From Bilabrum cf. latius (taxonomy: Eukaryota), in assembly GCA_965178125.1 (NCBI GenBank), contig OZ237747.1:1054001-1118000 (forward strand): a DNA stretch of 64,000 nt. Reading direction: 5' to 3'. How positions within the stretch are numbered: position 1 is the first letter of the stretch; each line of letters begins with the position of its first letter. Below the pieces are notes generated by a model. The model was not told the DNA's origin, made no database searches, and worked only from the letters and a program-made list of their open reading frames with translations. Below are positions 400-37,667 of the stretch, in pieces. The position numbers were made by a program, and so were the translations under genes.

Positions 400-1881
400 T
401 TACCTCCTTCCACCCGTTGCAGTACCGTCGGCGGCATTGATTTCGGAATGCAGAATGCCAGCTAGCAGCGCAGCCACCTCCCTCGGACGCTCTGCATGCA
501 GCCAGTGCCCCGCTGCAATGGAATGCAGCCTGCAGCTACCCGTGCTAAGAGAATAGGATTCGACAGAAGCTTTGTTCAGCGTAGACACAGCTGATCCACC
601 GCCGTCACCGCCACTATCAGACACCCCGTCCGGAGCACTTGCTCTGGAGCGAGCATGGTCAAGAGACAGCCCTGAAGGGTCCAACGCCCGAGGCAGAGGC
701 GCAGGCGATGCAGGTGAGAGCACGCCTGCGGAACCAGACGGACCATCGCGGCGCCGCGCATCCTGCGCCTCGAGCACGCCCTGCAGCCTTGCGACCACTT
801 TGGGCACTCCCCAGCGAGCCCCCCGAGTGCCGAGCACGAAATCGATCGCGGCGCCGCGCGGGGGGTTCCGCAGCAGGTCCCACGAGTCGATATCAGCCAG
901 GTCATGGTAAGCGTTCAATGCCTCGACTGGATCAAACGTCCACACAAACCCATCACTGCCACCATGGTCGTCAGCATGGTCGCGCCCGCTCAGTGGCACC
1001 CCGCGCTCGTCACACGCTGCTTCCGTCACGTTCGTCGTCATCCACTGAGAGAGCGATTTGCTGAAACCCAGCTGCGAAAAATACTCACCCGCCGCGCGGC
1101 GGCTGGGAAACGGAAGCGGCGCAGCACGCACCGCCTCGAGCACGACCTGCACACCATCCTGGTCCCGCCGAGCCTTATGCGGTGTGACGAGTGGATTTCC
1201 TGTTTGTGTTCCCTATGATTGCGAAGGGTGCGTTCTCCACCTTCCCGGGTACGTGTCCAGCACCACGAGGCGTCGCCGGCGGTGCTTCGCGCTGGTGTTG
1301 CTGCTGGGGCTGCTACTGCTGGTGGCAGTGCTCGGCCCGCCCTGCGAATGCAAAATTACTTTGCCGCCCATGGAGTGCCCGATCACCACGTTGATCGGAG
1401 TGGGGGATAGTGTCGGCAATGATGCTTCGTCCAGTCGAACCGCTGACGGCGGAACAGCCGAGTGTGGTCTGTGAAGAGCCGTCCCCGCTGGCACGTCCAG
1501 AGCATGCAAACCAGTCGTGCCCTCGATCTCAATCTCAGACAACAGGCTATTTAATTTCGCTGCGCACCTTTTTACAGATACTGGACGCACGTCGCTGTGC
1601 AGTGATCCAGCGTGAGATGGTAAATCGACGAGGACCGCTGCCCATCGGTTGGCCTCCCGCTCGCCCACTCTGTCCTTTAAGGCACGAAGTACTAGCCTTG
1701 CCACGGACCGCCAATTCTTGCCTGCACCCATCAGTCCATGCACGACAGCGAAAGCTTTGGTTGGGCTTCTTGCTCCCGGGAGAGCTACAAGCTAATGGGC
1801 CAGGGATGACGCATGCCGCCGCGACACAACGACTTCTTGAGCTTTCAAGCACTTTTTCACAAATCTGCGACTAGATCTCAT
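400..1881 (-). CDS. Alpha/beta hydrolase, ABHD11/YbfF-like, 493 aa with 2 in-frame TAG read as Gln; basic N-terminus could be a mitochondrial presequence
   Basis: Motifs VHGLMGAGKNW, GHSMGGK (nucleophile elbow), LVVLDTYP and AGHWLHAERP. ORFs 1213-1743 and 400-1152 are in one frame, separated only by TAG at 1215-1213. A second TAG lies upstream in LAH*LV. ATG at 1881, TAA stop at 402-400. Confidence 0.85.
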
Positions 1882-2019
1882 GCAGCACACCTGATCCAAC
1901 CAGCTAAACTTTGGCTGTCCGGATTTGGGTGGAACGAACGTTCGAAAGTGGCCGCCGGAAGAGGTTCGTTCCTCGGTGCGGAGTTTATCCGCGGCATCCG
2001 TGTGTACTCAAAGAAGCGC

Positions 2020-14691: not shown

Positions 14692-17600
14692 ATGGCTGCG
14701 GTAGCAGGTGCTGGCACGCAGAAAGCAGAAGAAGTGTTTGCCAATGTAGAGGTGGAAGAAGGTGAGCTGATCGCAAATTTTGTGCTTGGAGTCCGGTTGG
14801 GATGCCTCAGGAATGAGCCTCGGAACTACCTGTTGTTCTCGCTGATTGTGTCTTGGAGTGCATGTTTACATTAGACCTTGTCATATTTATGTGACAGATC
14901 TCTTATTGGAAGGTAATTTAGCGGGGATTTGTTGCTGGGCTGCCGATTGGCTTCGTGCAGACAAGTGGCAGGGCGCCAGAACAGTGTCGCCCACTGGGTC
15001 CAAATCATTGTGAACTGGCCAAGTAGTCAGACCAGCTGAAATGAAGACTGTGTTTGAAAAAGTATGGCATAGTGACACTCGGATGTTGCTATAGTTGAGT
15101 GGAATCGTTGCCAGCTGCTACCCTTTGGGGTGGATCCTTGGTTTGCCGGTCATTTAATGTAAGACCACAAAAGATGTTACCCTATTGTAACAAATTTTGC
15201 ATTGTGTATATATCCAATTGACTTGTTGCAGGCACCAAGATCTGGCGGGTGAACAAGTTCGAGCTGGAGGAGATCCCGGAGGCTGATCACGGCTCATTCT
15301 ACGAGGGCGACTCGTATATCGTGCTTCACATGCACCCTGGCCCCGGTGGCGACTCGTCACCGGACAAACTTGAGATGGATATTCATTTCTGGCTGGGGAA
15401 GGAGTCCTCCTAGGACGAGTAGGGCGCTGCGGCGCTCCTCTCGGTCGCCCTGGATCAGGCGTTCGGCGACCGTCCCGTGCAGCACCGCGAGGTGCACGGG
15501 GAAGAATCCCCGGAATTCTAGTCCATTTTTCGCAAGAACGGAGGTCTAATGTACCTGTCCGGCGGCGTGGACAGCGGGTTCTCTCACGTGGATCCGGACG
15601 CCGAGATGAAGGCTCTTTCCGAATCTCCCCGCCTATTCCACGTCAAGGGATCCAAGAATCCCACGGCCGAAGAAGTGGAAGCCAAAGCCACCAGTCTCAA
15701 TGAGGGAGATTGTTTCGTTCTGGACGCGGGCAACGAGCTGTTCCTGTGGTCAGGAAGCAGCTGCAACCGCAAGGAGAAGGCCACCGCCACCAAGCTCATG
15801 TTCCGCTTGTACGACGCGCGCGGCGCCGCGCCGGAGCGGGTGCTGATGAACGAGGAACCCGAGCACGAGGGCTTCTGGGGCCGCCTCGGCGGCGACGCCT
15901 CCGACGTGCAGCCCGCCTCCGCAGCGGGTTCGGACAAGGCCGCCGACGCCGCCACGGAGCTGTACCGCGTGACCGAGGCCGGGGACGACGAGGGCGAGGG
16001 CTTCGCCGCGGACAAGGTGGAGGGCTCGGGCGTGGAAGGGGCGCCTACCAAGGAGGACCTCGAGAAGGACGGGGTGTACGTGCTGGTCGCAGGGAACAAA
16101 GTCTTCGTGTGGTTCGGCCAGAAGAGCGAGCGTGCGCTGCGGAAGCAGTACGTGCAGGTCGGCGAGAGGCTGCTTGCATCTATCGGCCGCGGGGACGACA
16201 CCAGGAGCGTGGGCATTTCCCAGGTCAAGCAGCACATGGAGAGCGCGGTCTTCAAGGGGTATTTTGTTCCCTGGGAGAAGCCCCGCCTGTTCGACTACAC
16301 GTCGGCGCCCGCGTCTGGAGCTGGGGCCGACGAGGAGGAGGAGGCGGACGCCAAGGAGCTCCTGGCGCAGGCCGCCAAGCGCGCCGAGAGGTCCAAGGCC
16401 GCTGCACGGGGCGGCGACTTCGAGGTGGAGAGTCTCGAGGTGCTGCGTGTGAAGGGCACGGAGAAGGAGGAGGTGCCCGAGGAACAGATCGGGGAGTTCT
16501 ACTCCGGAGACTCGTACATCGTCAAGGCGAAAGGGGCGGGTGGCCGCGGCCGGCTGTACTTCTGGCTGGGCCAGGATTCGGAGCAGATCGAGCAGGGTGC
16601 TGCCGCCCGCATGTCCGTTGACGAGGCGGCTTCCATGGGCTCCGGGACCCCCCAGATCAGGCTGCTTTAGGGGAAGGAGCCCCCGCATTTCTGCGCGCTG
16701 TTCGGCGCCAAGATGGTCGTGCACGAAGGAGGGCACGCGGACGAGCCCGAGGCCCCCACGGCGGAGAAGCCCCACCTGTACCACGTCAAGGGCCAGGAGC
16801 CCTCCACCTCAAAGGCGGTGCAGGTAGAGGCGAAGGCTGCCAACCTCAACTCCGGGGATGCCTTCGTGCTTGTGGGGCCCGAGTCTGTGACGGTGTGGTG
16901 CGGCAGCAAGTGCTCCGAGGAGGAAACCGAGGTTGCAACCGCTGTGGCGCAGCGGCTGGGGAACAAGCTCGAGGTGGAGGGCCTCGAGGTCGAGTCGGTG
17001 GCCGAGGGAGAGGAGCCCGACGCCTTCTGGGAGTCGCTCGGCGGAAAGGAGGAGTACACCACGGAGGTGCCTGACGAGGAGGCAGGCCAGCCCCCGCGCA
17101 TGCTGCACGTGAGCACCAACACGGGCAAGCTGAGGGTGGAGGAAGTGCCTCAGTATTCGCAGGAGGACCTGGAGGCTGACGACGTCATGCTGCTGGACGC
17201 GTGGTCCCAGGTGTTCGTGTGGGTGGGTCCCAGCGCCGACGAGGAGGAGAAAGAGGGTGCCCTCAAGATCGTGGACGATTACGTCGCCGCGAGCGGGACC
17301 GACAGGACTGGCGTACCGACGGTGGTGGAGCACGCCGGCAGCGAGAGTGCCATGTTCAAGGCCCTGTTCCACGCGTGGGAGGACAAGGCTGAGGAAGCCT
17401 TCGTGGATCCATACGAGGCGAGACTGGCCGCGATGCGGGAGGAGAAGGAGGCCAAGAGGGCGGCGCTGGAGGCGGAGGAAGAGGCCGAGCAGGCGGCTGC
17501 GGCTGCCGCGGCGGCCAGGGAAGAGGCGGAGGCAGCCGCTGCCGCTGCGGAAGCGGCAGATGACGACGACCGAGAGGCAGCCGAGGCCGCCGCGGCGGAA

Positions 17601-17969
17601 GCAGCCGCTGCTGCAGACACCGCCGCCGCTGCTTCGGAGCAGGCTCAGGCAGCCGTGGTGGAGGCCCACGAGCAGTTTGACAAGGAAACCAAGGAGCGGC
17701 TGGCCAAGGCCCAGGCCGAGAAGGAGGCGCTCATCGCCAGCATGAGCGGCAAGAAGGCCGCTGCCGTGCAGCCCGGGGATGCAACCTACTCGGTGGATGA
17801 GCTTAAGGAGGCCAAGGCCGGCGGCGACCTGGACATCGAGTTCTCGCGGAAGGAGGAGTACCTCTCAGATGCGGATTTCGCCGAGGTGTTCGGGATGTCG
17901 AGGGAGGAGTTCGCCGACAAAAAGCCGTGGAAGCAGGCACAGCTCAAGCGAAGCCTCGGTCTGTTCTGA
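14692..17969 (+). CDS. Villin/gelsolin-family actin-binding protein with C-terminal headpiece; exons 14692-14761 and 15232-17969; ~935 aa, 4 in-frame TAG
   Basis: Phase-1 intron 14762 (gtgagc) to 15231 (ttgcag). IWRVNKFEL...[10 protein letters not shown]...[16 protein letters not shown]...[11 protein letters not shown], further gelsolin repeats, IRLL*GKEPPHF, and headpiece [21 protein letters not shown]...[19 protein letters not shown] at 15411, 15420, 15519 and 16668. Confidence 0.93.
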
Positions 17970-18519: not shown

Positions 18520-21050
18520 TTAATCTACATCACAGCCAAATCCTGTTTCCAGATGATACAGAGATTCTTTACAATCCCCACAAATGAACTTGCAGCAGCG
18601 TGAACACACTTTATAGGAAGAAACCGACTAATGATGCTGCCGCTTGCTGCATCTGGAGCCCTTGCACTTGGCGCTGCACCCCCCTCGACGGCTCTTTGAT
18701 CGTCCGTTACTGAGAAAATTAATCAGTCCTGCTTGTAACTACTCCTTTCCAATCAAATGGAGCGAGCCCAGCAGCGTAGCTACCACGTGCTGCTTTCTAC
18801 ATCCAAGGTTCCCGGGGGTCGCCTCCGCACGCATCCCAGCTGAGGTTGCAGCACCGCGAGTTCCTGCACGTGCATGTCGGTAAGGACGCATCAATTCGTC
18901 ATACAACAGCTGCACAAACATACCACGAGCCTGTCGATGCCGCACCATGTGCTAAACCTGTTCCTGAACGGATTTGCTGCTAGCTCCAGCAGCTTGCCGA
19001 CGAGTGGGTCCGTGGCGTAGCAGTCGACGTGCCTCCAAGTTGACCCAGATGATGTACGTATTGACGATAACTTGCTCCATTAAACCTTCCCACACTCTTA
19101 AGTATGCCCTAGTCTCTCCCTGGAATGAATTTTTTTTAGCGAAAGTTGCGTCCGGAACTTGTCAGCTAGATCCACACCCCCCATGTACTTGTTGTAGAGG
19201 ACGGACACGAGGGGCGCGTTCACCACACTCAGGTCGCCACCATCTCTCCGTAGCGTCTTTACCAAGCAAACAAAGTACTTCGTAGGAATGTTAGAAGCCA
19301 TAAGAAATGGTGCGCGGTCACAGTATCCAAAAACTTGCATCCCATAAGCTGAATCATCTGGCGAGTCAAAGGCTACTGTCTGGCCAGGGCTCAACAGGCC
19401 CCGACTGCCAAGGTCCTCTTCGGCCAGCAGCGATCCCGCAGGAAGCTCACTCGCATCAAAAACATCACCAGCTGTTACATTACATAAAGATACTTTGCTG
19501 GACCCAAGAAGAGCGCGCTTCACAGCCTGCCCGCGTTCGCCTGGGGTTCGTCTGTTCAGCTAGCCAATCGCGTGGTACAGCTCACCGCTCACTTTGCCTT
19601 GGCGAAGCGTGCCAACAACCCGAAGGCCTTTGCTGGTGGCCCAATCACACAGTGGAGCCGATGTAAAGTAGTTATCCACCGCTAGGAGGCCCCCGTTCAA
19701 GTTTTTGCCCATTGCCTTCGACGCAACAGCTGCTGTTTGCAGGTCCATCCGGGTCAGCTACCCGGCAGCGGTGCCGCTGCCGGTTGCTACCTTATACGAG
19801 TACTCAGCCTTCCCTCTGTACTATCGTGTATCATCGGCAACAGATGTTGCTAGATCCAAATGGTACACATACCCGTCTTTTCGTGCAGCTGCCCATAGCT
19901 TAAAGCCATGCGATGTGGGCTTGTTCGGCATGATGACACATGCCCGATTTCGGCCGTACGCCATCACCATCATCTCATCGACGGCGATGCTCTTTGGGCT
20001 CAAAGTAGCCGCACGAAAGTACTCTGAAACTGCATCTAGCATGCCTGGTGGATATTCTATGAGTACCCGCTCGCGAGGACTGCCCACACTCCCTAGCCTC
20101 ATTGTGGCGCGCTCCTCCGCCAGCAGGGGTGCCGGAGCCTCCTGCAACCTCCCGGCGAAAGACAAGTTTCGATGGAACCGATTCCAGTCTTGCACTACGA
20201 TATCGTCTTTCATGCGCACCAGGAACTACTTTGATTGCAGCAATTCTAAAGGTATCCGGGGTCGAATGAGAGACCGAGTCAATACCACGGCCAGGAACAT
20301 CATGGCAACTGGCATGTCCATTGGTTGGTCGCTGCCGGCTGGCCGGCTGCCTGGCCAGCTACCTCTGCCGCTGCAGTGCCTCGCCACGAAAATGCAATAT
20401 CGAGAGGCACCAGCGAGCACAGAATGCGTATTGGAGATATTGGTTGTTCATGATGAGCCGTCATCCAGCCTTTGACATACTCAGTAGCAGCCACATGAGT
20501 AGCCGCTGTGCGAGCGATCGGGAATCGATTCGGGATCCCATCACCGCCAATCACAACCCGGTCATTCAAGAAGTACCAATATTCAGGCTCATCAACCAAC
20601 GATGCAATTTTGTCCATAGGAAACATACTTTCATATTGCTCTATTCTGCGCCGCTTTGCTTGGTGAGCCTACTGCCTCCTACGATGCTGCACCGGAGGCC
20701 GGCTCAAAGTTGCAGACCGACTGGATACCGGCTCGTCCTCGTCTGAATCGCCGACATAGTCCATATCATCATCGCTGGCCTATGCTTCGCCCAACAAATC
20801 ACGTAAATCATCATCTTTTGTCGATTTATTTGCATTGTCCTCTTGCCGTTTACGCTTGGACCCAGCGCGTCGGCTCGAACTGGCCGCATGGGACGGGCTG
20901 CTTCTTGACTACTTGCTAGCAACCGAAACGCTAGATATAGGTTTACAAGACTCCAATGAGAATTTTGGGATTGACTGAGATGCTTCTGCGAAGGCTAAGC
21001 ACAAATAAGCGATGAAGGCTGATATCAGTGGCCTTGCAGCAACACCGTGC
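18520..21050 (-). mobile_element. piggyBac-superfamily (PGBD-like) DDD transposase gene, probably degenerate (two frameshifts); element ends not identified
   Basis: Acidic N-terminus, IAVDEMMV...IMPNKPTSHGFKLW, LAVDNYFTS...VVGTLR, YNKYMGGVDLAD, VWEGLMEQVIVNTYII, and a Cys-rich C-terminal domain (CSAKC...CSRCCKFICGDC...H) ending at TAA 18522-18520. Frameshifts near 20390 and at an A8 run near 19130-19137. About ten in-frame TAGs. The 5' end is uncertain, with a possible upstream exon near 21300-21480. Confidence 0.8.
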
Positions 21051-23381
21051 ATGGCCAATTCTGCACAGGACGCAAGCCCGATTGTGGCCCTATTATACCT
21101 CTGTATAAATATTTAAGCTCGTCCACATCACCATGGAATGATTATTCAACCAACACCTCGTCAAGCATACCACGGATGCATGGATACTGTCAATGAGTGC
21201 CACATTCGTGGCTTCCGGTGCCTCTGCGGCAGATTGTACGGTACCCCGAAAATAGCCGGCTACAGCCCATGCAATTCCATCAACCATAACAATACCGTAC
21301 TCACTTTGATCGATGAGCCTGAGTTTGGCGGATTTCTGCTCGTGACGCCGAGACGAGGCACTCCCACCAGGGGCACTTGCACCCCGAGACCCAACTTCGG
21401 ACGCGCCGCTGGAGCCACTTTATCGCGTCCCACTCGTTCTTCTCGCAAACTTAGACGGAATCCTCCACACGATATTGCATTCAATACCCTTGTATCTCAA
21501 CAGTAGTGCCAGTGTGTCAAAAGTCTATTGCGCTAAGGTATAAATGCCCTGCAAATTTTGGAACCGTTTGAACCGACGTGTGTTGGAATGGCAGCCAAAT
21601 TTCGCTGGATTGCTAATGAATGAGCCTGGCAACCTGATAACATGTTGTCAAGTATGTTTTTAACTACTAAGTACCAACAAAAACCAAAGAAAAGCTTTTT
21701 TGGCGGCACACGGTGCGTGCATCTGGCACCCCTCGCCAGCGAGTAAAATCTTGGGCTGGGGGTGGTCGCCAAAAATGGTGGTCGCAAGCACGACTCGTTT
21801 TCAGTCTAATGCTGCGAATTGCATGGCTCCGTTGGGACTGCATTACATTTAAATGTTACATTAGATATTTTTGCAATGTAAATTTACCCAAGAAATTGGT
21901 CCAGTTCTCAGCAATGGGAGCCTAAAGGCACGATGGTCGCGATTTTGGGACTCGGAATGCCAATAATGGCGGACCTTTCACGGCGCCGGATAGGAGGATC
22001 CGGGATCGTTTGGTGCGCACGGCAGCTTCGCCACTTCTGCGACCACTTGCGACCTAATTCGGAGCCAATGCAGCGGAGTCCCCACTTTCGAAGATATCAC
22101 GCTACAGTACTTAGCCACCACGCTCAACTATCAGCCCACGTGCGGTTGTCTGCTGCAGCCCGCGACTCTACTGATCTTGTGCACCGGCGAGCAGGGCTTG
22201 GCCTGGACTCTGGAGCAAGTGCCAAGGGGGTAGTTGTGGGATCCAAGCTATCCAGGTGCACTTCGATAGTTTCCCAAGAGATTGGTATTGTGTCATTCGT
22301 CTAGGCGTGGGCAGGCTTCCTCGGCATAATTCTAGGCCTATATTTGTGCGTGCGGGGCTTGCGCCTCCAAGGCTGAGGTCGCGCGCTGGACAGCGCTCGG
22401 GCGAGTCGAAAAGTCATGTGGCGTGAGCTTGTTCTCCAAGGTGTATGTTCGGTATTAATTAGCCTGTATTCTGGACGTGAATGTCCAAATCAGCGCGGAT
22501 CCGGAATCCGGACCCATAGACTCGGAGTCTGATAGATCTAGGCCTTTTGAGTGTCTTGACACAAAAAAGGCTGAAATGAAATCAAGTGTAGACAGTACTA
22601 CCCGGATGCATACAACAGAAGCAAGTAAGTTGATTGTTTGCTAATTTTTGAATGGCATACTGCGTACGAGACGATCAGGCACCATCGATTTTATCGTCCT
22701 GCTGTGACCACAGGACCTTCCGAACGGAAACCTAGACTATTTGCAGCGCATAGTGTAGAATCTTATTGCAAAAGATTCTCTTTTCAATACTGCAGAGAAG
22801 TGGCGGGGCCTCGTCAGCCATCGAACAACTGCGTCACAACGCGGGAATCCTCTTGTTCGAGAACCACGTGACCAATTCGGCAGTTCTCGAGTTCGTGACT
22901 CCGTGCCATCCAGGCGTAGGCCTATTGAGTAGGCTGCACATGAACCTAGCCCACCTCCTTGTAAGACAATTTTTGTTGTTTTGACCGATGCAGACGCCAA
23001 GAATTTGTCCATGTGTGCCAGAGTAGCACATGGTGTGCCAATTTAGCCACTGGCCATAGCAGGCTGCAAATCAACGCCTTCACAGTACAGTTCCAGGGCG
23101 ATCGATCTTGTATGGCTCACTTCATCGGCATTTGTTCTTTTTTAGGATATTAGTTAGAGGAACTGGCTCGCAGATACCTCCCGGGATGTGAGTGAACAAA
23201 GGTCAATCGGGCGAGCACCGGCTACCAGGTGTGAGAGAGTATCCGAAGCTAGGCATCTTAAGAGAGAAGCTAAACTGATTCAGCTTTAATATGGAAGTCG
23301 CTAACTAGTTGGTGTGCGTTCGCAGTATGTAGCAAAGGAGAAGCGGAAATAAAGCGTGCGACCTTCGCTGGTAGCGGTGGC

Positions 23382-26314
23382 ATGGGAAGAGGTGTAGCCG
23401 CAGCTGCCGCATGCGGCATTCGTGGAACTACGGCAGGCTATTGTGATACTGAGTCATGCTATGAGGCCGGTACTGGGAAAAGTATGCCAGCTGGGCCGTA
23501 TGAGTTCTCCAGAACACCGATGGCCTCTGCGCCGCCAGCCGACGCGGTTGCGGCAGCCATACCGTACATATTCGCCAAAAGCCCGAAAGATCTTGTCTCT
23601 AGGATAGAAACAGTGGTAAGAGGCACGTCAACAGAGGTGCTCGTCACGATTCCCGTGTATAACGAAGACAAAGAGAGGTGCATGGAAACAATTTATGGCA
23701 TATGTGACAGCCTTGAGCGAGGGCTGCCTCCCGCCACCGAGGATGATCCCAGTGGGCGAGCAGTGCAAGCCGGCGGTTCACCGGTTAACGTTCAAGATGG
23801 AGTTGCTGCCGCCGCCGCCGCTGCTACTGCTGATCCTGTAAATGGAGCTCAGGCTGCCGCCCCATCCGGCGCCAATCTCAGCGCCTAGACTTTCTCGTCC
23901 GGCACAAGGTACCGTGATCAACTAAGAGCCAGCGATGTGAGGGTATGCATGACTTACGATGGACATGATAGGATTGATGACACAGTCAAGGAAGAAATGC
24001 TGACAACAGACAAATATTTCAGTGAGCGCATCATTGATCCGGCCTACTTTGATGTGAAGAAGCGCGAAGGCGACGGTGTCCACGTTTTCCACAAACGGGT
24101 TTACGTTCGAAAACGCGGAAGCACTTTATATCCCCACGTGAGACCGCTGAAGATATATTAGCGTTTGAATGTCGTGGACTATGCTGTACCTGTGCAGTTT
24201 GAGTCGCTTTGTCCCCCGTTGCCACCGACCCAATCCCACCCACGCAGCGCATCCATCTCATCGTGTGCATCAAACTGAAGAACGCTGGAAAACACGTATC
24301 TCAGCTATGGTAGTTTCAAGGGATTGCGCGTGCGCTGCAGCCCCGGTATATTGTACTAGTTGACGCTGGCACACGACCACTAGGCGACGCAGTGCTTCGG
24401 TTGTGCGATGCGATGCACGCCAATCCCCAGCTCGGGGGCGTTTGCGGCAGAATCAAGCCGCCCAAAGCCCCTGCCATCTGGGAAGGCATATCATACGTGC
24501 AGACGTTTGAGTATGCTGCATCGCACTACCTTGACAAGGTATTTGATTCATTGACTGGGTGAGTTGCATTTGCAGTGTCCAAGCACGGCTCCACTGGCTC
24601 GGCGCAGGCTGGATACACTGCTTGAATTCTGAACAGACCAATTTGTCAAGCATTTGCATCAATTCTCCGCGCAGCTTTATTCCGGTGCTTCCTGGTGCGT
24701 TCTCCGCGTATTCATACAAGGCCATTGAGGGAGCGCCGCTGGACAAGTACTTCGAGTTGCTCGCAGTTGATAAGACTAAACTGACTGCATTCCAAATGAA
24801 TGCACTGCTCGCAGAGGACCGCAAGCTTGCCATGTATATGGTTGGAAAGGCAGGGTCTAGCTATCTCGTAAGTAAAAGGAAAACTTCTGTGGGTGCGGTG
24901 CGTCGCCAATGACTCGAAGCTCCCGCTGTCGTGCATTTCAAATGCTGAGCTACTCGCAGGCCAGCTACTGCTACGACGCACTTGCCGAGACCGATGTTCC
25001 AACAACGGTGACGCGATTGGTTGTACAACGACGCCGCTGGACCAATGGTTCCTTCTACGTCTTCATTGAGCTCGTGATGAGCGGGATGCAGTGAGTCCCG
25101 AGATAGAAGCCCAAATTTGCATGAAAACATTAGCTTCCACGGCCCACAAGTCCGCACTACCATGAATACGCGCATGTTTGGCAATTTCTGCTCCACTTAA
25201 TCTTCTTTGCAGTCGCATCTTATGTCGGTCAGGCCACAGCACGTCCAGGCGAATCGTGCTGCTGCTCAATTTCGTGTGGCATATGCTGCATGAGGCCATG
25301 AACTTCTTCAGTCTAGCCTTCGTGTTCCTGATATACTTTGCTACTATATCGTAGATCGCGGATCGCGCCGGTCTAGGGGACTGGTTTGTGTACACTCTCA
25401 TCATCGGCCTGCTACTGTGCGTGGTGGCCAGCATGCTCATTGCGTAGCGAGCACACTACACGTCGTACGGCCACTGGTACCATGCAATATGCTTGTACTT
25501 AGCAGTACTTAACATCGTAGCAGTAGTGGGGGCTGCTGGGTTATTGTTTGAACAGGGAGACGATCCCGGGACTAGCTGGTTGCCTACATCAGTCCGGTTC
25601 AATTTGCTGATGGCTGTGCTTGGCGGCGCGACGGTACTTGCCTACACGCATGGAGTTCTAGCTGAGACTGCTTGTGGTGCGCCATACTACTTCTTCTTCC
25701 TGCCTTCTACAATTGTGCTGTCAGATCTGACGGCGAAGATGCAGCAGCACCACTTCAGCTGGGCCGAGCCCGCGGCGGCCAACAAGACTGTGAGTGAGCA
25801 GCATAAGCAAAGGCAAGTAGAGCTTGACCATTTTGGCATGGTTTGGGGCCTTTTTGGAATTTCTAGCAACATCGTTGTTGGGTGTGCCCTGGCCGCCTTC
25901 AACCCCCGGCTTGACCTAGTGATGGCCTTCCTCTTCATATTCATGATTTTCAGTCTAGGGGTGCGGATTATCGCATCGGCTCTATACTTGATCGAGCCAT
26001 GGTACAAGAAAGCCGGCGATGCACTTGCAGATGGGACTGACCGCTGTATGTCGAACCTGGGCTGCGGATGTTGCTTGGAATGGCTGCAGCCAGCGGCCTG
26101 TCTGCCTTGCTGCTGCCCGTGGCGGTGGACAGCTGCAAGGCTTGCGGTTGACGACTCTCAGCCTCGGCGCCGGACTGCAGCCGATATTGCTGACCCACAA
26201 CGATTGCAGCATGACGAGCAGCCCGGGCCATACTTGGAATGTGCGTAGCAGTCGAAGCGCCCTGCGCAATGGCCACGCATGCTGAATGCAGGGCATTCTC
26301 ACGAGCCACCGTGA
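23382..26314 (+). CDS. Chitin synthase (GT2), paralogue 1; multi-exon, true 5' end probably further upstream
   Basis: [55 protein letters not shown], then TM helices. Introns at 24138-24247 and near 24558, 24868 and 25092. In-frame TAGs include 24311 and 26246. Ends TGA 26312-26314. Confidence 0.88.
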
Positions 26315-27098
26315 CAAGATTCAATCATTGCGAGGGCGGTACCAAGTGATGCTCACTTTGGCTTTGAATCATATATTTGTACAGATGACAGAGGAAAAAA
26401 ACAGAAATGAAAAAGTATCGTCGCTCGATTTTGCTAACAGAACAAGAACTCGGGGGCGCAGCCTCTCAGCGGCCAGGTAATCTGTCCCGCCTATTGCGGT
26501 GGCTGCTGACCAGTCCGCAGAGTCGACAGGGGTACCGCTCCGTAGCCAAACTTACTGTACTGCGTGACCAATATGCAAATGACTGCTGCTGCCCCTGCAC
26601 AACCTCAAACTCATAGAGACTCGCCTGTAGCACACAACTACTACGTGCTCCACCCGTGCACATGGATCTGCTCTAGTCCCGCACTGCTTGCGTCTTTGAT
26701 TCTAGAACACATGCACAAGCCAGAGCTCATGCGGAGTAACGACACGTCTGAGTAGCGACACTACATAGAGCTCGGTGCCACTATCAAGGCGGTGACGCAC
26801 TTGAGTCTCGCTGCGTTCTGTGGCAGTGCAAACGGCAACCTCGGAGGTGGCCGAGGGATCACGGTCATGTATCTTCCACCGTTGCGATCGCAACAGGACA
26901 GCAAATTAGGTCATTTCTCGTGATTGCTCGAACTCTTTTAATTTGTTCTTAATTTAGATACAATACGGATTTTACGGGCAGTTTGCTTTTTTCAGATGCC
27001 ACATCCGGTCCGGATCTGGCGCAGTCACCACCGCCCATAGGTGAACTCAGGGTCATTCGAAGGACCTATTGAGCACCGCTCGAAGAAGTATACCAACG

Positions 27099-30000
27099 TT
27101 AGTCACACATTGGTGCTAGAGGACTGGCCTAACGCGAAGTAGACACCTTGGCGGAGTTCTGAGAAGCTCCAGCTGACGGGGGCTGGGCGCTTCCGCCAGC
27201 AAGGACAACGGAGCCTTGCTCAGCCTGTGCGGCATGATCTGTCGTCTCCGCGTGGACCTGACAATGTTTCTAGGACCCACATACCTAGCTGCCAATGTGG
27301 CATTCAGAGCCGCGTAGGCGACTCATGCTGCTTAGAACAAGTGATTTAGAAGCCGATGGCCTGCGGGGGCGACGAGGCCTGCCCGCTGCTGCCTCCTTGG
27401 CTGCAGATCGCGCCTCCCAATTGTTGTCCGGATTAAGACCAAACACAAACTCCTCAGATTTGTTACGCGTGAGCCGTCGTCGTGCGCCAAGAAGCATATT
27501 CCGCCTATTTCCCCGCCATGGGCACAGCAAGCTCCACGACCACCATCCCTCGCAACTCTCCGGCAGCACACATGTGCTCCGAATCCAAGCCCTCCAGGTC
27601 TGGGGGCAGCAGCAGTAGCAACGACATGTGAGCCTGGCCAGCCACTCAGCTGCGTATATCAGGGCGTTGCACGCGCCCTTGTAGGGCTTCTCAAGAAGGT
27701 AGATGAAAGAGAAGAGAATCCGAACTGAAAGGCTGAAGGTGCCGGCGTAGAAGAGGGACCACATGGTTGCTTCCCCCGTCGTGTCGTAGACAACAACAAT
27801 CAGCCCAAGAAGCAGATTGAAAAACAGCACGAACATCACAATGCAGTCACGAAAGGACTTTAGTTCGCTTTTCAGGTGCTGCTCCTTTGCTTCAGCTTCT
27901 TTCCTCATGGCTGCTTTCGAAACGCACTGACCGTCAGCAGCATCCTCCAACCTGTCCTTGTCCACGCCTGTATTCGATTCGGTTTGCGCCGATTTCAGTG
28001 CTCGCGAATGGTATTTCCGAATACCATCGCTAGTACGCGATTGTCGTGACCAGACTGGAGGCTGGCCTGGTCCTCCAGCGCCGTCACCACGTCGCTGAGG
28101 CGGGGTAAGTGCTGGTACCGGCTGGCCTTGCCCGGAGTGCAGTGGGGGTCCCGTTGAAGTCCGAGGAGGTCGAATGTGACGCGCGCCCTTGAGGATGTTG
28201 GTATCGGATTTGAAGTGAGGCGTAAGCGTGATCTTGTCCGCTGCAGCCGGCTCCCCCTATTGACTGTCGTTGTCACAATCCTAGATCTGGTCGCCAGCAA
28301 GCTTTGAGGCAGCCGCGGCACCAGACCCGGATCCCTTCTATTCGCTTGCATTGCATGCCCCCTACGCTTTAGCATCCGTCAGGCCCGTCCATTCCTCTGC
28401 ATGATCGCCAGGCAATTGTTCGTAGGGAACAATGCGTCGAGTCCCATCGCCGTGTTGTTGATGTTGGTGAACCTGGTGTCCTGCGGAACGGCGAGCCGGC
28501 TGCGATGCACGCTAGGGCTGCTCAGCGGTCGGGTCATCCTGCTTGGTCGGTGAAGACCACGTCACTTCGTGGAGCCTAAGGAGGGCAATCTGGAAGATCA
28601 GCATGACCGTAGTTGGCATGAAAGCCACAAAGGCAGGGGAGGTCCATACGAATGTGATGAAGTGCCCGTGAAGCAGAGCTGCGAGTGCCATACCAGAGAG
28701 AGTACCTACGCCAACCCACCTAGCGATAACGATGTCAAATACGAATGGAGCGGCCATCGTGGAGTTTCTGGCCAAAGTGTCGTTGAGCAGCATCACTGAC
28801 TCGTTGATGGCGGGAGCCGTAGCGTTGACCAGGTCCATGGATACATTTACTACGTCCGCAGTGGCGTTCTGGTGAAGTGTCCCGATGTCTAACATGGTAC
28901 TGTTCGCAGTCACCGTGGAGTTTGGGTCAGCCATGAGAGCGCGCTGGGCAGCTCCTGCTCCAAGTTCAGACTCGTAAGTTGGTGCAATGTCGTCGTCAAG
29001 AACCCCAGACAAGCTTGCAAGGGAGTATACTGATGCCCCAACAGCAGCAATGCTGAGGACACCCAGGTACAGCATCATTGTGTTGTAAACTGAGCTGTAC
29101 CGTTGGTAATCTGCATCAGGCGCCATGATGAGGATGTACAGCACGATCAAGACAAGGCCAAAGATTCCGGTGTAGGCTATAAGGTCACCTGCCTGTCCAA
29201 GGAACTGCGCCAGCTGAAACAGCATCACGCTGTAGGTGACGACAAGCAGCGTTGGAGAAACGACCTGCGGCACAAAGTGCATCGTTGTCCAGCACACATG
29301 CATGCCAATCGCAGTTTTGCGGCCACAGCTGTGGCCGGACTTGTGCATCAAGTCCCTGCGAGATGTAGGCAATTAGGCAAGTGGGCAAGTTAACACTGGT
29401 TGACAAATGTCAAAGCAGTATTTTGTTGCGTAAAAAGAAACGTATGGCTCACCGGGAGTTTTTGGCAATGTATAGACTCAGCGTAGCCAGGGTTCCATTG
29501 AGCCACCGCCTCCTCTACTTGATCAGGGCCATCAGCGTTTCGGGTGGATCCGTCGTGGCCACAGCATCGCTGACGTATTTGACCTGCGAGTTCAAGATAG
29601 GTCGAATGCTTTGTATTCATATAGAAGAAGCAATTATTTTGTGAGTTGTTCACTTTCCCTGCATACGCATCGCCTTAGTCAGGTGCTAGGATGATGCAAC
29701 ACCCCCGTGTAGTACGTCTAGCACTCACCGTCCAGCACTCGTCGATCTTTGCAACAAGGTACATCACCAGCAGGCGGTCCTCCGCAAGCATAGCATTCAA
29801 CCAGAACGGAGCTAGCTCTGTCTTGGGCGTGTCCACCTTCTCGAAGTATTGCTCCAGTGGCTTGCCCTTGAGAGCCTCCCACCTGAAAGCAGAGAAACAG
29901 CCTGGCAAGACCGGAATGAACCTGCAACCATAAGGTGAAAGGAGTCCACCGCTGCCTTGAGGTTCTACTGATAGACAAAAATAAGAGGATGATGTCGTAA

Positions 30001-31696
30001 CCCGAGCGTAGTGCGCCGGGGCTTCAACTCACCCAGTCATGGAGTCCAGGGTCTTGTCGAGGTAGTGAGCCGCGCTGTACTCGAAGTGTTGCGCGCACAG
30101 CACTAAGTTGTTCCAGGCGAATCCGGACGGCTGAATAGTGCCACAGTTACCAGCAAGCTGCGGGTTGACTTCCATCGCATCCAGAAGCTTGTAGATGGCC
30201 CCGGCTTTCGGCTTGGTTCCGGCATCCACGAGCATGAAGTACTTGGGGTTGATTCGTGTAGCGGCACCCATGAGCTGCCATTTCTGGGACTTGTGCTTGC
30301 CTCCATTCTTGCCCTTGATGCAGACAATGACAAGTACGGGCTGCGATGTGTATGGCTAGAAGATGTGGGGCCTGAACTCGCTTCAAGCTGGCGGTGGGTA
30401 GGTGAGCAACGCATGTAGCACGACGTCTGCAAACTCACTGTATTTTGGAAGAAATGCGGGTCCCCATCAAGGTTAGATCGCACTCTGACCCAGCGCTAGA
30501 ACATGTACATGTATGGCGAATTGCCAGACCTCTCATGCTGCTAAATGTACTGCGGATCGATGACTGGGTGCTCAAAAAGCCTCTTGCTGCTGCCATCTAT
30601 GCCTTTCAGCGTGCCATCAAGCAGCTGCACTGTTGATTTGTTCATCTTGTCCCAGCCGTCGAAAGTAAACATGATGATTGGCTGCCCTGCGAAGAGTCCC
30701 TTTATCGACTCACGGTCTGGCTCGGCCTGAGGCACCGCAGCTGGACCTTGCCCTGCCTCAAGATCTACACCGGAGACATCTAGATCCACAGCGTGTGCAG
30801 AGGGAGCTCTAGTAGGTGCCAATTGTGTTACTTTGGGCAACCGTGCAGGTTTCGCCTGCCCTGGTGCTGGAACTGGAGCCGGTGCGACTTGTGTTGCTTT
30901 GGGCGATGGCGCAGATTCTGCGTGTCCTGGTTCGAGTGATGAGGCCGACGCGGCCGTAGCTGCTCCGCCGTCGGGCTGCGGCGATGCTGCTGGTCCGTCT
31001 GCTGGTACTGCATCCCTCGACTATGCAGTGTTTTCAGTGGTCTATTCACTGTCATTTGGGTAGCACTGTAGCAATGCGCCGCAACACGAGCCGCAACTGC
31101 AAGCCTGCTAGCAAGAGCACAGCTTGTCGCAGCAGCACTCGCAATCCTCTGCGTCATCCTCGTGTGCCTCACATTGTCGCTCTGGCGGGTCGCTAACAGG
31201 CTGAATCGTCCGTAAGTCTTGAACGCTTGCCATGATTCCCTGGACGGTGTCCTGTATTTGCTTGGGTGCTTCTGAGTACCCGGCCACTGAAATTAGGGTG
31301 GATACCCCTTCCTCGTAGGCACCGAAGGGGTCGTGCAAATCCCACCCATCTGGGGAGCAACACAAGATGAACTGCTTGTGTAGCTCAGCAGAAGGAGTGG
31401 CGCTGTCGCAGTCTTCGTCAGATTCATGATCTGTGGGCTAGATCTACTGCCAGGTAGCCTCATCTGAGAATGCGTGTCGCCTGCCGGTCTGAGACGCCGA
31501 CCCCGTTGCCACGCTTAGCCGCGGAGTGTTATCTATCGAACCTCTTGGGCTGAACATCCTGCCATGGCCAGCAGTTCGCTTGTCCTGTGGAGCCTTGCTT
31601 CGCTTGTGAGCTCTGGGCTCCTTGTCCTGTTGCTGCGAGGAGGTGCGCGCCAGAGCCTGAGCGTCTGATGCAGTGCTTGCTGCCGGTCCAGTATCT
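27099..31696 (-). CDS. Chitin synthase (GT2), paralogue 2; multi-exon, 5' exon(s) upstream of ~31700 not resolved
   Basis: VAGYSE, FTFDG, LVDAGT, QHFEY, LPGCFSAF, MLAEDR, TDPP and (TAG)RRRWLNGT, then TM helices with a long hydrophilic insert (27965-28512) interrupted only by TAGs. Ends TAA 27101-27099. Confidence 0.88.
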
Positions 31697-33671
31697 GCGA
31701 CATATGGGAACGTTATGCGCTTAATTTGTTTCTGTGGCTAAGATGCTTCACGTGGAAAAGCTTTGGGGCGGGCTGGTTGTGATTGCTCTGTTCAGCGATG
31801 CAGGCTCGTTGTTGCCGACGGGCTGGAACATAGGCTATAAATCCAGACATATCAGCGTGTGCGTGGTGGAATGCAAGCTAAACATGAAGCAATATTCAAT
31901 AGTTTATCACATACAAAAGTAGAAGCTCCAGAATGTCTCCACGTTTGCACCGAATGGCTGCAACAATCCTATGGTCAAAGTGACAACTACATCAGAACAC
32001 AGAAACACAGCACGCGCAAGACTCCGTGGTGCCAGATATACCGCAAAACAAAAGCAGTACATGTTTAGGCCGGCGGGCCAATCGAATGGATCGGAGTCCA
32101 GCGAATTCTCACCTTTGCTGTTTGATACTGCCTTGCCACCGAGCGGTGGTTCGCGGCTCTGCATTCGTATCAATAGAGAGTGCCAAGTCCAAGCTCTACG
32201 CTCCCAATTGACCAGTTCTGTACCTTCGCCTATTTCAATTTCTGTACGAATTCTGGTCTCCTGAGAATGAACAGGAAGTGCGGTCGTCTGCCTGCGTGGC
32301 TACAGTAGCACTCCCATACCGGAACAACCATATTGTCGGGAAGTCTAGAATTGCAAGCCAGCTGGTCCGCGTAATGATAATTTGCCTATATCAATCCATA
32401 TGCAAGCGCTGGAGTGTTTGTGTGTTTTAAAAGTCCTCATACAGCACGAGGGGCGCACAGATTGCTCACACCTGACCGCGCCGGAGTGCCAAGCAAGGTG
32501 ACGTATTTTGGATACCGTGTACCCAGTCGCTTTACAAGCCCTGGCTCACGACTTAACTGGTGAATTCATATTCATTGTGTGGAATTCAGCCGTGTAGATA
32601 GCTGCTCCTGTTGTGAAAACCGTTTTGTCCGTGTTGTCAAGGGTCCAATGACATCAGTATCGCGCGGTGCACGCAGAGTCCATTATTTGCAAAGAAAGAC
32701 ATTTCCAGACATTCTGTATCGTGAACAATTTATATTCGTTTAATAATTGGATTTTGCGCCCCTTGGTTGGCGACCGCAAGATGGCCACATGTGGTCGCAA
32801 CCATGATTTGACTCCGGATTGTGGGCGTGCAGGCGTGCTCCGCTCATTATCGCGTTCCAACTGGCGCCATCAAATAATTGCCGCCAGCTACCTACAAGAA
32901 GATATTGTTCAAGACAAGACTGGCCTGCGATCCAGTCTTGCTTCAAGGCGGTGAAAATACATAGATCTATATTGGATATTTGTGTATGACATGATGCCAG
33001 AGTGTACGCGCAACCTAGTCTCGTTAACAATCAGACATGGCAAGACCTGACAAAGCTGTGCCTGTGCGCGACCCTTGACCAGACTGACCGGGGCTGGGAA
33101 GAGCACGTGCACTACTCCGCCGAGGAGGAGGGGGTTGGGAGGGTGGGCAAAAATTACCCAATCTCCGCCCCTCTCCTGAACACAGAGAGGGTATGCGCGT
33201 CATCGCAAGCAATCCGTTGGCTTGGTCGCACCTTCCGGTCGCAACCGCCATCGGAACCCAACGAGATGTTCACGCGCTCCTACTCTGGCATCAACACCGA
33301 ACCCCATGCGGTGTTGGGATCATCATGCAGTGCACAGGACTGATGTTGGCTCCTCATTTGTAGCGGAGCTGGCAACGCTTCTACTATCACCCTGGTGACC
33401 TCCTAGGCCCCAAGTTCACTTTCAAAGTGATGAGTTATAACGGAAGACGCTAGGTAGCCGATTAAAACTGAATTCCACAGAATCAGACTGTGGAATGCTC
33501 TTGTTTCCCTGAAACCGGAACACAGGCAGAGCGTTGGACCATCTTTCACGCATCGACTCACATTCACGCATCGAGGTCAAAACTAAAATAGGAACTTTCT
33601 TAAGGTTGCGCTCTATCCCGTAATAATTCGATTAATTTCTAAAGCTTGGCTTCAACTAGCTGCCAAACAGC

Positions 33672-36600
33672 ATGGCATCAGCACCCCATTTAGAAGAACA
33701 GCATGTCCAAACACACCGACGGCCAAACTCGGCCGCTTCCAGCTCGAGTCACGGTAAGAGATCAAACAGAGACGGGTATATGACGCAAAGCTAATGTTGA
33801 ATGTATCGTATTATGCCGTAGTAGCCGGCTGATCGCATAAATATGCTGGTGGTTGCAGTGTTGCTGGGAGGCTGTAGTGCTACTGAGCTTCCAAAGTCCC
33901 AGGCAGTCATCAATTTAACCCAAATGCTGCGATAATTGAAGCTCGCAGGAGGAATAACGCTTGAAACAGCTGGTCATAGCGCCATAGGACAGAGTAGTGG
34001 GACGATGGAAAGGCTATCTAGCACGACAACAAGGCAATGCACTCCCGTTGAAGGCGCGGGATGCGAAGGGAGGCCGCCCTGGCACAACTACTACGCAGCG
34101 AAGCCGGCAAATTGCAAGAAGCTGTTGTCAAGACATCCGATGACTCGTTTACTCGCTGTAATTTCGGCACACAAGGAGAAAGGTGCAGCCATTACGCGGT
34201 CCATCCAAGGTGTGCGCACGTCACTTGCAGCCCTCGGAGAAGCCAAGGAAAGCGCATGTTGTTCTTAGCCGCTAGAAAGAACTTTGAGCTCCCCATCAGT
34301 GCGGCCAGAGGGTCAAGTTATATCATAGATTTCTTCGGCACCGGCCCCGCAGACTTTCAGAGAGCAGCTGAATGCATCAGAACTGACCGTGTGCATAACG
34401 TTCGACGGGCTCAGAGCTGTGCTTGGACCGAAAAGGAACATGGACGTTCCGCAGGATGGAAGCGACACGGCGATGGACCTTCTCACCAATAAAGATCAAA
34501 TGTACTTTGACCAAGCTCTTATCCCAACGGGTGTCATCCCCTCAGACGAGCTATCGTAGAACGCGATGTCATCACAGGCCGGCGCCGTAGTGTTCGAGTC
34601 AACGGCGAGGATTCGTCGCCCTGGAGCGCCATTGCAAGGCCATGGAGAAGACCGTTACTACCCCGAGGTGAGATATCACCGGAAACTCGCCGACTTCTGC
34701 AGGCGTATGATGGCCGCAGACTCATCGCATCCACTATTCTCGTGTACACTTCTGCTGCAGGAAATTCACTTCATCGTGTGCATTAAACTAAAGAATGAAG
34801 GCAAGTACGTGTCCCAGTTCTGGTAGCTTCAGGGTGTAGCAAAGTGCTTGGATCCAACGTATGTGGCCCTCATCGATGCTGGCACTCAGCCACTGGACGA
34901 CGCAGTGATTGAGCTGGCCGACTTCATGCATGCCAACCCGCAGCTGGGTGGAGCCTGCGGTAGGCTTGGCACTCAATCCAGCCAGAAAATGAACGAATGC
35001 TTCATCAACTTGCTACAGCAGGGTGAATATGCAGCATCCCATGTTCTTGACAAGCCTCTTGAGTCCTTGGTCGGGTGAGCACGTCCGTATATCGTGCGCC
35101 AAATGCGATAACACTACTGTGACTCGCACATCAGATGCTTGCCCCTTTTGATAGCCTCCAGCTTTTACAACGCTAGCCTTCCATTTTCAGGTACATTGCT
35201 GTGCTTCCAGGCGCATTTTCGATGTACTCTTGGGAGTGCATATCGGAGCAGGGTCAGAAGTTCGATCCCGACTCTCCGCTGGACCTGTATTTCGTGGCGA
35301 TGGGAGAGAAGCTCCCCGAGGGTGACCCGCACAGGATCAAGCTCACACCTCTTCAGCTGAACTCTAAGCTCGCTGAAGACCGATAGTTGGTCGTATGGGT
35401 CGTAGGCAAGATTAACGGCAAGTGGACGGTGAGCAAAAGTTCATTGACGTCACTGCAACGCGTAGCCGCTGTGCCTGCATCGACCTTGAAGCAGCATCAT
35501 ACCACTAGTATCGCAGGTTGGCTATTGCTATACAGCTGTCGCCGAGACTGATACCCCAAAGTCGATCACGGACATTATTAAGCAACGCCGCCGGTGGAAT
35601 GTCGGCTCGTTCTCGGCGTTCGTCAACACGTACCTCATGGATGGACTATGGTAAGCGATTTGCTTGCAATCGGCCCCGCTTGCATGGACCTTTAGAGTGT
35701 GCGGAATAGTTGTAGACATGAAAACAACACGCATGCAGTGTTTTTGCTTCCGCCAAATTCCCAGGGTCATGATGAAGACGAAGCATCACGTCCTTCGGAA
35801 GGCGATCTTCCTCATCCAGGCCGTGTGGTACATTTCGCAATGGCTAGCCACATTCATGAGCGTCGCCCTGATGTGGATGTCATACTCTGCAGCAATAATG
35901 CACTTCGCGACATCGATTGGCGGCATCGGTGGCATTGTATTCAGCAACGCTCTACACTTCGGGCTCGGAATGACGCTCATCGCATGCATCCTTATTGCAC
36001 GTGGCAAGAGATTAGACGGTTATGAGACATGGTACACGGTATTATCCATCATTCTGTCCATGTACAACATAATGGCTATCATCGGCGCGGCGATGGTCAT
36101 CGCATCCTTGAGCACAGCTGATGCGAACCCTCTTGGGATCGACCTCGTGCCTTGGTACTACGCAATGGGGTCTGCTGTGCTCAGCACCATGGCTTTGTCG
36201 GCATGCTACGGAGTGTTCTATGCTACAATGTTTGGAGGTTTTGTTTTGTTTGTATTCCTTCTACCGTCGAGCATTGTCCTGCTCTGGCTAACCGCAATGA
36301 TGCGGACCAACGTGACGGGCTGGTCGGGTCACTCAAGCGGATCCGATGCAGAGCGCCAAGGCGAACTCGACAGTCACGGCACTCTCATGGCGATGTTTGC
36401 AGTTGTCTTGAACTGCCTCTTGGTTGTATTGTGCTCTGGGTTGGATCCGTCCTATCGGGTCGTGATGACGGTGCTCTTCCTGTTTGCGGTGGCGAGTTTG
36501 TCAGTCCGAGTGGTTGCATCAGCTCTGTACCTACTGGAGCCATGGTACAAGAGGCTTTGCGATAGTTTCGCTAACGGTGTCGATGATTTCCTCACATGCA

Positions 36601-37667
36601 TGAGTTGTGCCCGCTGCATGACGTGCCTGCCGGATTGCTGCGGCTGGTAGCTTTGCTGCCCCTGGCGCGGTGCGCGGGAAAGGCACGCACAACGGGCCGC
36701 CGCGCGGGCAAGTCTCCAGAAACAAGGCTCTACTGAATGCGGTTCTAACGGCTGTGACGAAGTGGGTCAAGATGGATCACGTGCTCCGCCCGGGACTGAC
36801 GGGATCGACAACGACCGTGGACGCGATGCCGGAAAAGGCATCGGAGGCCTTGGCGGCGGCGCTGCCGCTGCTGCTGCTGACCAGCAGAACGCGCAAGACC
36901 AAAGCATGGTTGCCCCTTCCCCGCGACGTGGCAGTAGCGAGCAGGAGTACGCTGCATAGGACCAACGTATGGCTGCCCCTTCCCCGCGACGTGGCAGTAG
37001 CGAGCAGGAGTACGCTGCATAGGACCAACGTATGGCTGCCCCTTCCCCGCGACGTGGCAGTAGCGAGCAGGAGTACGCTGCATAGGACCAACGTATGGCT
37101 GCCCCTTCCCCGCGACGTGGCAGTAGCGAGCAGGAGTACGCTGCGTAGGACCAACGTATGGCTACCCCTTCCCCGCGACGTGGCAGTAGCGAGCAGGAGT
37201 ACGCTGCGTAGGACCAACGTATGGCTACCCTTTCCCCCCGACGTGGCAGTAGCGAGCAACAGGATATAGTCAGCGGAAAGCCAGATCCCAAAGCAGTGCC
37301 CGTACGGCATGACGACAGTCGCGGCATACCGCCACCCAGGGACACAGTGAGGGCTGACGAGGCCAGTGCTGACGTGGTGACTCAGGCTGGGTAGGGACTC
37401 GCAGCAGCAGCCGGCCCAGCAAACACCGGCCTGGACATCGAGCAAGCAGGTAGCGAGGATCCTGATGACGACCAGAGCAGCCAGCACGGCTCCGTCGAGA
37501 ATGCGGAGGTCAATAGTGCAGTATGGAGACTGGCGGAGGCTGTAGCGGCTGTAGAGGCACAAGGGGCTCCAAACACTGGCTTAGGCGATGGTGCTGCTGC
37601 ACACGAAGATAGTGAGGGTGGCGGCCAAGTTGTGGAGCCAGGTGTGATCGCTGGTGGCAGCGAGTGA
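33672..37667 (+). CDS. Chitin synthase (GT2), paralogue 3, with repetitive C-terminal tail; multi-exon
   Basis: ATG 33672 (caaacagcATGgc, similar to the villin start context). Introns 33754-33948, 34668-34760, ~35076-35190, ~35429-35516 and one starting ~35651. Motifs ITFDG, LIDAGT, QQGEY, VLPGAFSMY, KLAEDR, AETDTP, QRRRWNVGS, then TM helices. Reads through TAG 36648 into the tail and ends TGA 37665-37667. Confidence 0.88.
36894..37259 (+). repeat. 63-bp coding tandem repeat, ~6 copies (QDQRMAAPSPRRGSSEQEYAA), in the tail of chitin synthase 3
   Basis: Units start at 36894 (CAA) and at 36957, 37020, 37083, 37146 and 37209 (all TAG), spaced exactly 63 bp. Confidence 0.95.

Follow-up and report, generated by a model that had tools for sequence, protein, structure and literature searches.

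The window analysed here, a stretch of 64,000 nucleotides from Bilabrum cf. latius (contig OZ237747.1, positions 1,054,001 to 1,118,000 of the forward strand), is contained in the genome assembly G000 of 48.6 Mb and 111 contigs. It harbours three chitin synthase genes whose reading frames are interrupted by TAG and by no other stop codon. CHS1 (23274..26314, forward strand; exons 23274-24137, 24248-24558, 24675-24867, 24960-25090 and 25213-26314) contains 5 TAG codons and ends in TGA; position 23274 is the start of the stop-free frame, the true ATG not being fixed. CHS2 (27099..31791, reverse strand; exons 31791-30439, 30340-30033, 29921-29729, 29583-29453 and 29355-27099) contains 17 TAG codons and ends in TAA; its 5' end is likewise not fixed. 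CHS3 (33672..37667, forward strand; exons 33672-33753, 33949-34667, 34761-35074, 35191-35428, 35517-35650 and 35765-37667) contains 12 TAG codons and ends in TGA. Spliced with TAG as a sense codon, the genes give frames of 866, 1413 and 1106 codons without internal TAA or TGA, and four GT-AG introns lie at positions common to all three; CHS3 has an extra upstream exon (33672-33753). The exons of CHS1 and CHS3 are assigned to chitin synthase by Pfam (PF01644, PF03142), and this match together with the motifs DAGT, EDR and QRRRW predicts chitin synthase activity. Such a cluster of three chitin synthase genes (23274-37667) is found here in a naked flagellate, and CHS2 carries long inserts. The tail of CHS3 (about 36910-37260) contains five to six tandem repeats of 63 bases, of which five end in TAG and make up 5 of the 12 CHS3 TAGs. 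Between CHS2 and CHS3 (about 32990-33320) lies a very high-copy short repeat, with a depth of 50-100 times that of its flanks in run X10.

A first-pass annotation of the window had proposed that TAG and CAG are swapped at a homologous codon of the three paralogues, that the pattern is reversed at QRRRW, and that TAG is thus a synonymous glutamine codon under purifying selection, for which no external database was needed. Our codon alignment bears out the swap: TAG in CHS1 (24311..24313, forward) and in CHS3 (34824..34826, forward) share one column, hereafter the SQxW column, with CAG in CHS2 (30275..30277, reverse). The CHS3 codon is unchanged in a spliced contig of run X2, and the CHS1 TAG corresponds to Gln in the 96%-identical relative P0368, the code behind whose translation is unknown. 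The reversal is also real, since the Gln of QRRRW is encoded by TAG in CHS2 (29515..29517, reverse) and by CAA in CHS1 (25026..25028, forward) and CHS3 (35583..35585, forward). Purifying selection finds support at QRRRW, a column with Gln in 89 of 92 aligned homologues, and none at the SQxW column, which in outside chitin synthases (149 of 150 matches used, the 96%-identical one set aside) is mostly Phe (94/147) and otherwise Ala or Leu; Gln at this column is therefore particular to the present lineage. That the paralogues suffice without external data was overstated, as their evidence amounts to two columns and one contrary column, a TAG right after AEDR in CHS3 (35384..35386, forward) opposite Lys and Leu. 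In the tabulation, 3 of the 34 TAGs fall within the 209-column ungapped catalytic core, two of them opposite Gln only and one opposite Lys/Leu (chance probability of the Gln pairing about 0.0014, a rough figure from a slightly circular test). Over all aligned pairs, TAG stands opposite Gln in 5 of 45 pairings and opposite another TAG in 2, because most of the TAGs lie in unalignable low-complexity regions. As sole proof the tabulation was rejected, the alignable TAGs being too few to decide alone, and the meaning of TAG is settled by sequence evidence from outside the three chitin synthases.

This evidence comes above all from dynein heavy chains. The best 10 of 28 matches in the assembly, all intronless, were compared with 120 homologues at columns conserved to at least 70%. 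Together they contain 137 TAG, 1820 CAG and 215 CAA codons. Of the TAGs, 104 could be aligned and 41 fall on conserved columns, with Gln at 22, Glu at 6, Arg at 3, other residues at 10 and Tyr at none. TAG thus meets Gln as often as CAG does (22/41 vs 294/523, Fisher p = 0.75; background of Gln 3.4%), while Tyr is found at 0/41 TAG vs 363/532 TAC columns. Log-likelihoods for TAG were +59 for Gln, -37 for Glu and -136 for Tyr. The same test returns the standard meaning for all 61 sense codons, so that no second reassignment shows. In small GTPases the Gln of the DTAGQ motif is catalytic; 8 of the 29 TAGs within 30 small-GTPase matches are located on this residue, 7 of them as G-TAG-E. In the gene for eRF1, residue 48 is encoded by TAG and is Gln in 89 of 94 homologues. 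Within the window, the villin/gelsolin main exon (15222..17969, forward strand), which has TGA directly after the headpiece, contains four TAGs (15411, 15420, 15519 and 16668), two of them opposite Gln columns (81/119 and 104/119 homologues). At each of the 5 TAG sites checked, the predicted proteins P0001 and P0368 have Gln; since the code used for calling them is unknown, their weight is small. Several columns weigh against a glutamine meaning, that after AEDR in CHS3 among them: 19 of the 41 conserved dynein columns are not Gln, although CAG behaves alike; a second eRF1 TAG, at residue 73, faces a column of 89 Leu and 6 Gln (95 homologues); villin TAG 15519 stands opposite Leu in 88/119 homologues and the 15420 column is mixed; and one TAG in a rhodopsin (L251) is opposite Ser in a published relative. 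The share of TAG among Gln codons is about 6% in dyneins and 21-27% in genes of low complexity. By these alignments UAG is a minor synonymous Gln codon, which swaps with CAG between paralogues, between relatives and between alleles. The first-pass assignment of TAG to Gln holds genome-wide (dyneins, small GTPases, eRF1 and the QRRRW column).

The other half of the code escaped the first-pass annotation: judged by gene ends, TAA and TGA remain stops. In all ten dyneins the alignment with homologues reaches TGA (8) or TAA (2) to within 4 residues. A Cys motif of prenylation type stands immediately before TGA (16) or TAA (3) at 19 of the 30 GTPase loci, the other 11 being uninformative; 29 of 30 histone loci, many of them duplicates, end in TGA or TAA; and the eRF1 gene ends in TAA. 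Internal TAA is absent from the three CHS and ten dynein frames, and TAA ends CHS2, eRF1, two dyneins and three GTPases. No TAG was found at a recognisable gene end among dyneins, GTPases, histones and eRF1. A point on the other side is that these ends come from about 60 loci of few families, which leaves room for rare termination at UAG. It is also conceivable that UAG is ambiguous, being Gln inside genes and still a stop near transcript ends as in Condylostoma or Blastocrithidia, or leaky through eRF1. The core motifs of eRF1 are intact, and the rarity of TAG in dyneins and its absence from 29 histone matches could reflect a cost; yet no recognisable C-terminus lies at a TAG, and in one dynein 20 codons separate a TAG from the conserved end that follows. 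We regard such ambiguity as unlikely. Other codes were considered and rejected. A ciliate-type code with both UAA and UAG as Gln disagrees with TAA, which terminates and is never internal; a context-dependent stop/sense code would place TAG at recognisable ends, of which a limited sample has 0. Pyrrolysine decoding disagrees with TAG opposite Gln genome-wide (no search aimed at PylRS was made). Reading TAA, TGA or TAA plus TAG as sense did not give the long frames obtained with TAG alone, and adding TAA lengthens frames little. We hold it highly probable that UAG alone has been reassigned to Gln throughout the nuclear genome, with UAA and UGA still serving as stops.

Under the standard code, U-to-C editing could make UAG into CAG in the mRNA. 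The two codons are one transition apart, and run X4 has C at villin positions 15411 and 15420 (TAG to CAG) among the differences listed. X4 is, however, about 5% diverged (25 differences in 492 bases) and therefore derives from a relative, so TAG versus CAG at the villin sites distinguishes two related organisms. In run X2, one contig lacks the first two introns of CHS3 and agrees with the exons throughout, its 4 TAGs included, with no other letters at these sites; this run is listed as possibly DNA, and its RNA status is deduced from the splice joints. A look-up of sequencing runs listed none of RNA that holds the sequence. Moreover, TAG is present in published Bilabrum transcripts (PMC9733931), and a cognate tRNA gene exists. 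Editing is in our view extremely improbable. That the three CHS genes are pseudogenes, or their TAGs assembly errors, is suggested by in-frame stops under the standard code and by a Bilabrum rhodopsin filed as a pseudogene (PMC9733931). Against this, frames are interrupted by TAG alone and never by TAA or TGA, including those of eRF1, dyneins and Rabs, and contigs of run X10, which may be related to the source, match 23803-33019 and 33237-35199 with 0 differences. The probability of this explanation is negligible.

Reassignment of UAG to Gln calls for a decoding tRNA. A single tRNA(CUA) gene was found on a 1-Mb contig (C23:907607-907679), where it adjoins a frame with 8 TAGs and is followed by a T run. 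Pattern scans, which are not exhaustive, gave no second CUA tRNA in sets of 14 and 8 hits, nor a UUA tRNA among 18. The label "Pyl" assigned to the gene by ARAGORN is anticodon-based only. The tRNA would decode UAG and not UAA, and would be charged by GlnRS. Its stems point elsewhere: tRNA(CUA) has 6/7 acceptor and 4/5 anticodon-stem pairs in common with tRNA-Tyr, i.e. 10/12, vs 3/7 and 3/5 with tRNA-Gln(CUG) and 1/7 and 2/5 with tRNA-Gln(UUG), and the best of 266 other tRNA pairs of different isotype reaches 8/12. Among the 25 nuclear tRNAs compared, C1:G72 is confined to tRNA(CUA) and tRNA-Tyr, and the variable loop has 5 nt in these two, 4 nt in both Gln tRNAs. Eukaryotic Tyr identity resides in A73, C1-G72, G34 and U35, bacterial Gln identity includes G73, G2-C71, G10 and U35, and the entry for eukaryotic Gln is blank (PMC9976931). 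As A73 and G34 are replaced by G73 and C34, two Tyr determinants are lost and several Gln ones carried. A Tyr origin of tRNA(CUA) with a switch to Gln identity thus has, on present sequences, a somewhat better than even chance of being correct. Most speculative is the path of this tRNA, which would have arisen from tRNA-Tyr(GUA) by G34C, lost Tyr identity by A73G and acquired a Gln-type D arm.

Several observations speak against a Tyr origin. The D stem of tRNA(CUA) is identical to that of tRNA-Gln(UUG) (8/8; 7/8 with Glu and Trp), and G73 is common to both. Identity over the whole length fails to discriminate between donors (Tyr 50/73, Gln-UUG 49/76, Gln-CUG 46/74, Glu 46/74, Trp 46/75). In addition, of 780 tRNA candidates no more than 63 were scored in the Rfam search, and tRNA-Leu(CAA) and Ser(CGA) were not retrieved for the comparison of 25. 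With the same code, tRNA(CUA) may instead descend from a tRNA-Gln, CUG or UUG, its Tyr-like stems being due to convergence or gene conversion. The D stem, G73, an overall identity about equal to that with Tyr and the divergence of the tRNAs of this genome among themselves favour Gln descent, whereas the acceptor pairs, the restriction of C1:G72 to tRNA(CUA) and Tyr and the 5-nt variable loop argue against it. We consider Gln descent a real possibility, though a doubtful one; it concerns the origin of the tRNA only and not the code. A Tyr-like tRNA might also insert Tyr on some occasions, so that UAG would yield a mixture of Gln and Tyr. C1:G72 is an element of eukaryotic Tyr identity (PMC9976931), but A73 and G34 are lost and none of the 41 conserved dynein columns with TAG is Tyr, which makes a mixture very unlikely. 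In both copies of tRNA-Gln(CUG) (L043 and L044, contig C7) the acceptor stem contains an A-A mismatch and residue 73 is U, as against G73 in tRNA-Gln(UUG).

The release factor and the synthetase were inspected as further parts of the candidate machinery. That eRF1 keeps its GTS, NIKS and YxCxxxF cores counts against a release factor adapted to the new code. Beside the cores it departs from 95 homologues at G29A, N30D, S60V, L69Q, N129S and K130H (human numbering), and these N-domain changes are predicted to lower UAG recognition. L69 has been implicated in UAG reading in the rhizarian exLh (PMC5304391); Gln at this position also occurs in 6 of the 95 homologues. GlnRS has Phe-Gly where the E. 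coli enzyme has Lys401-Arg402. In E. coli GlnRS, Arg402 reads G36, and a similar Gly is present in plants. We treat Phe-Gly as only a lead, since the role of R402 and the plant Gly are general background. The G73 mutant of the E. coli supF tRNA-Tyr is reported to insert Gln. For this insertion and for the role of R402, a confirming passage was found neither in the available parts of PMC9976931, PMC2965240 and PMC3467082 nor elsewhere in the literature covered. Ambers derived from E. coli tRNA-Trp and tRNA-fMet demonstrate that CUA on a non-Gln body can take Gln identity (PMC9976931, PMC2965240). These are bacterial laboratory mutants, whereas the present tRNA is a natural eukaryotic gene.

Bilabrum is a bicosoecid, and the genome itself very probably belongs to a bicosoecid stramenopile of this genus, a marine flagellate that feeds on bacteria and is related to Cafeteria. 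Cafeteria provides the best named matches for dynein (60%) and eRF1 (69%), and for villin these are MMETSP1104 (42%, labelled Cafeteria) and C. roenbergensis (40%). The organism was placed as sister to the Cafeteria clade (SH-aLRT 99), with the reservation that this is a quick tree of one gene and 25 rows. Compared by eye with the channelrhodopsins published for Bilabrum sp. (PMC9733931), rhodopsin L251 is near-identical to B1ChR1, and L247 departs from B1ChR2 at 6 residues out of 248. Because of a premature stop, the supplement of that paper labels one B1ChR2 transcript as pseudo. In its DNA, TAG stands where the other allele has CAG (Gln), and the frame continues to TGA. Two variable stop positions are reported by the authors, and the term "genetic code" is absent from the main text and from all four supplementary files (PMC9733931). 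The allele was filed as a pseudogene because TAG was read as a stop under the standard code. In the light of the genome, this "pseudogene" is a sign, not recognised as such, of the code described here, with the two codons segregating as alleles in a closely related organism. The assembly contains 11 rhodopsin matches in all, two of which (L248 and L249, contig C13) are fused to C-terminal parts of more than 900 codons with 4-6 TAGs. A second, different 18S rRNA gene of 1802 bases is present on a 17.9-kb contig (L001, C95), as compared with the tandem type of 1700 bases on C12; by eye it resembles that of a photosynthetic stramenopile and probably stems from a co-cultured organism.

Further frames of the window carry TAG. 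An ABC1 kinase/beta-lactamase-like frame (1810..7509, forward strand) contains 6, and a DDE transposase frame (19098..20447, reverse strand; PF13843) in a high-copy stretch contains 4 in frame. At least four long frames of low complexity follow one another at 38820-55335 (forward) and about 56590-59379. TAG makes up 21-24% of their Gln codons; their N-terminal parts resemble degenerate protein-kinase domains by eye, and no Pfam family matched. A scan of metagenomes with villin returned 5 loci, all distant (34-49%), and no DNA of a close relative.

Outside the window, two AT-rich islands (L232, C5:277001-287000; L233, C3:1092001-1102000; GC 0.29-0.47) encode an rve integrase, a C5 DNA methylase, a DUF5906 primase-helicase-like protein, a T4-type RNA ligase and DUF285 proteins, along with AT-rich tRNA-Met/Pro genes. 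They resemble integrated virophage/Polinton-like elements. Their frames contain 1-12 in-frame TAGs each, and the elements therefore seem to use the host code. Similar tRNA-Met genes occur at no fewer than 4 further places, and a scan of viral contigs with the integrase gave no match. The mitochondrial contig (C111, L228-L231; GC 24.4%) encodes tRNA-Trp(UCA). Under table 4, its frames of 100 codons or more number 30, and every one terminates in TAA, none in TAG; ARAGORN found 10 tRNAs only on it, none with CUA. If nuclear tRNAs are imported into the mitochondrion, avoidance of TAG stops could matter.

Among known codes the closest is that of the fornicate Iotanema spirale (PMC5304391), in which UAG likewise means Gln, UAA and UGA are kept as stops, and UAG is a minor Gln codon (about 8% vs 6% in the dyneins here). 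Iotanema is known from a transcriptome only, the present case from a genome. Its tRNA(CUA) was predicted to derive from tRNA-Gln(CUG) and was not seen (PMC5304391), whereas here the gene is seen and both stems are Tyr-like, so that the predicted Gln(CUG) origin fits poorly (6/12 stem pairs vs 10/12 with Tyr). Iotanema eRF1 has T32G (PMC5304391), while T32 is intact here. In those features that can be tested from sequence, the present code works like the Iotanema code. The ciliates Hartmannula sinica, Trochilia petrani and Protocruzia tuzeti also have UAG alone reassigned to Gln, and in H. sinica and T. petrani no suppressor tRNA was detected (PMC11687900), in contrast to the tRNA(CUA) visible here. 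The available part of that paper gives no stramenopile case, and the word "stramenopile" is absent from the paper as a whole. The ciliate-type UAR code of Tetrahymena and hexamitids (in PMC5304391) has UAG as Gln in common with ours, with UAA being Gln there and a stop here.

In the literature covered, we found no bicosoecid or other stramenopile reported to have changed its nuclear code; subscription journals and preprint supplements lay outside that coverage, and a prior report may therefore exist. The available parts of PMC6723347 (mitochondrial code only), PMC11412368, PMC13466520, PMC10553269, PMC12152300, PMC12574857 and bioRxiv 10.1101/2021.07.16.452543 describe none. The code type as such is known; what appears to be new is the supergroup in which it occurs, and the candidate tRNA was not expected. 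The full account would be a first nuclear code change in a stramenopile, with a Tyr-derived amber suppressor switched to Gln by G34C, A73G and a Gln-type D arm, a GlnRS without the Arg aligned to E. coli R402, silent TAG/CAG alleles, and virophage/Polinton-like elements living on the new code. As a whole we advance it tentatively, its chances falling a little short of even.

Few codes treat UAG differently from UAA, and most of those known come from uncultured or poorly assembled protists. Here a contiguous genome offers the whole candidate machinery of tRNA, eRF1 and GlnRS, with Cafeteria, for which genomes have been sequenced, as a close outgroup. How UAG is uncoupled from UAA can now be put to the test. 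If the suppressor for Gln did derive from tRNA-Tyr, this would be a route not predicted for such codes. For Bilabrum itself, gene calls made with the standard code truncate most proteins of the genus.

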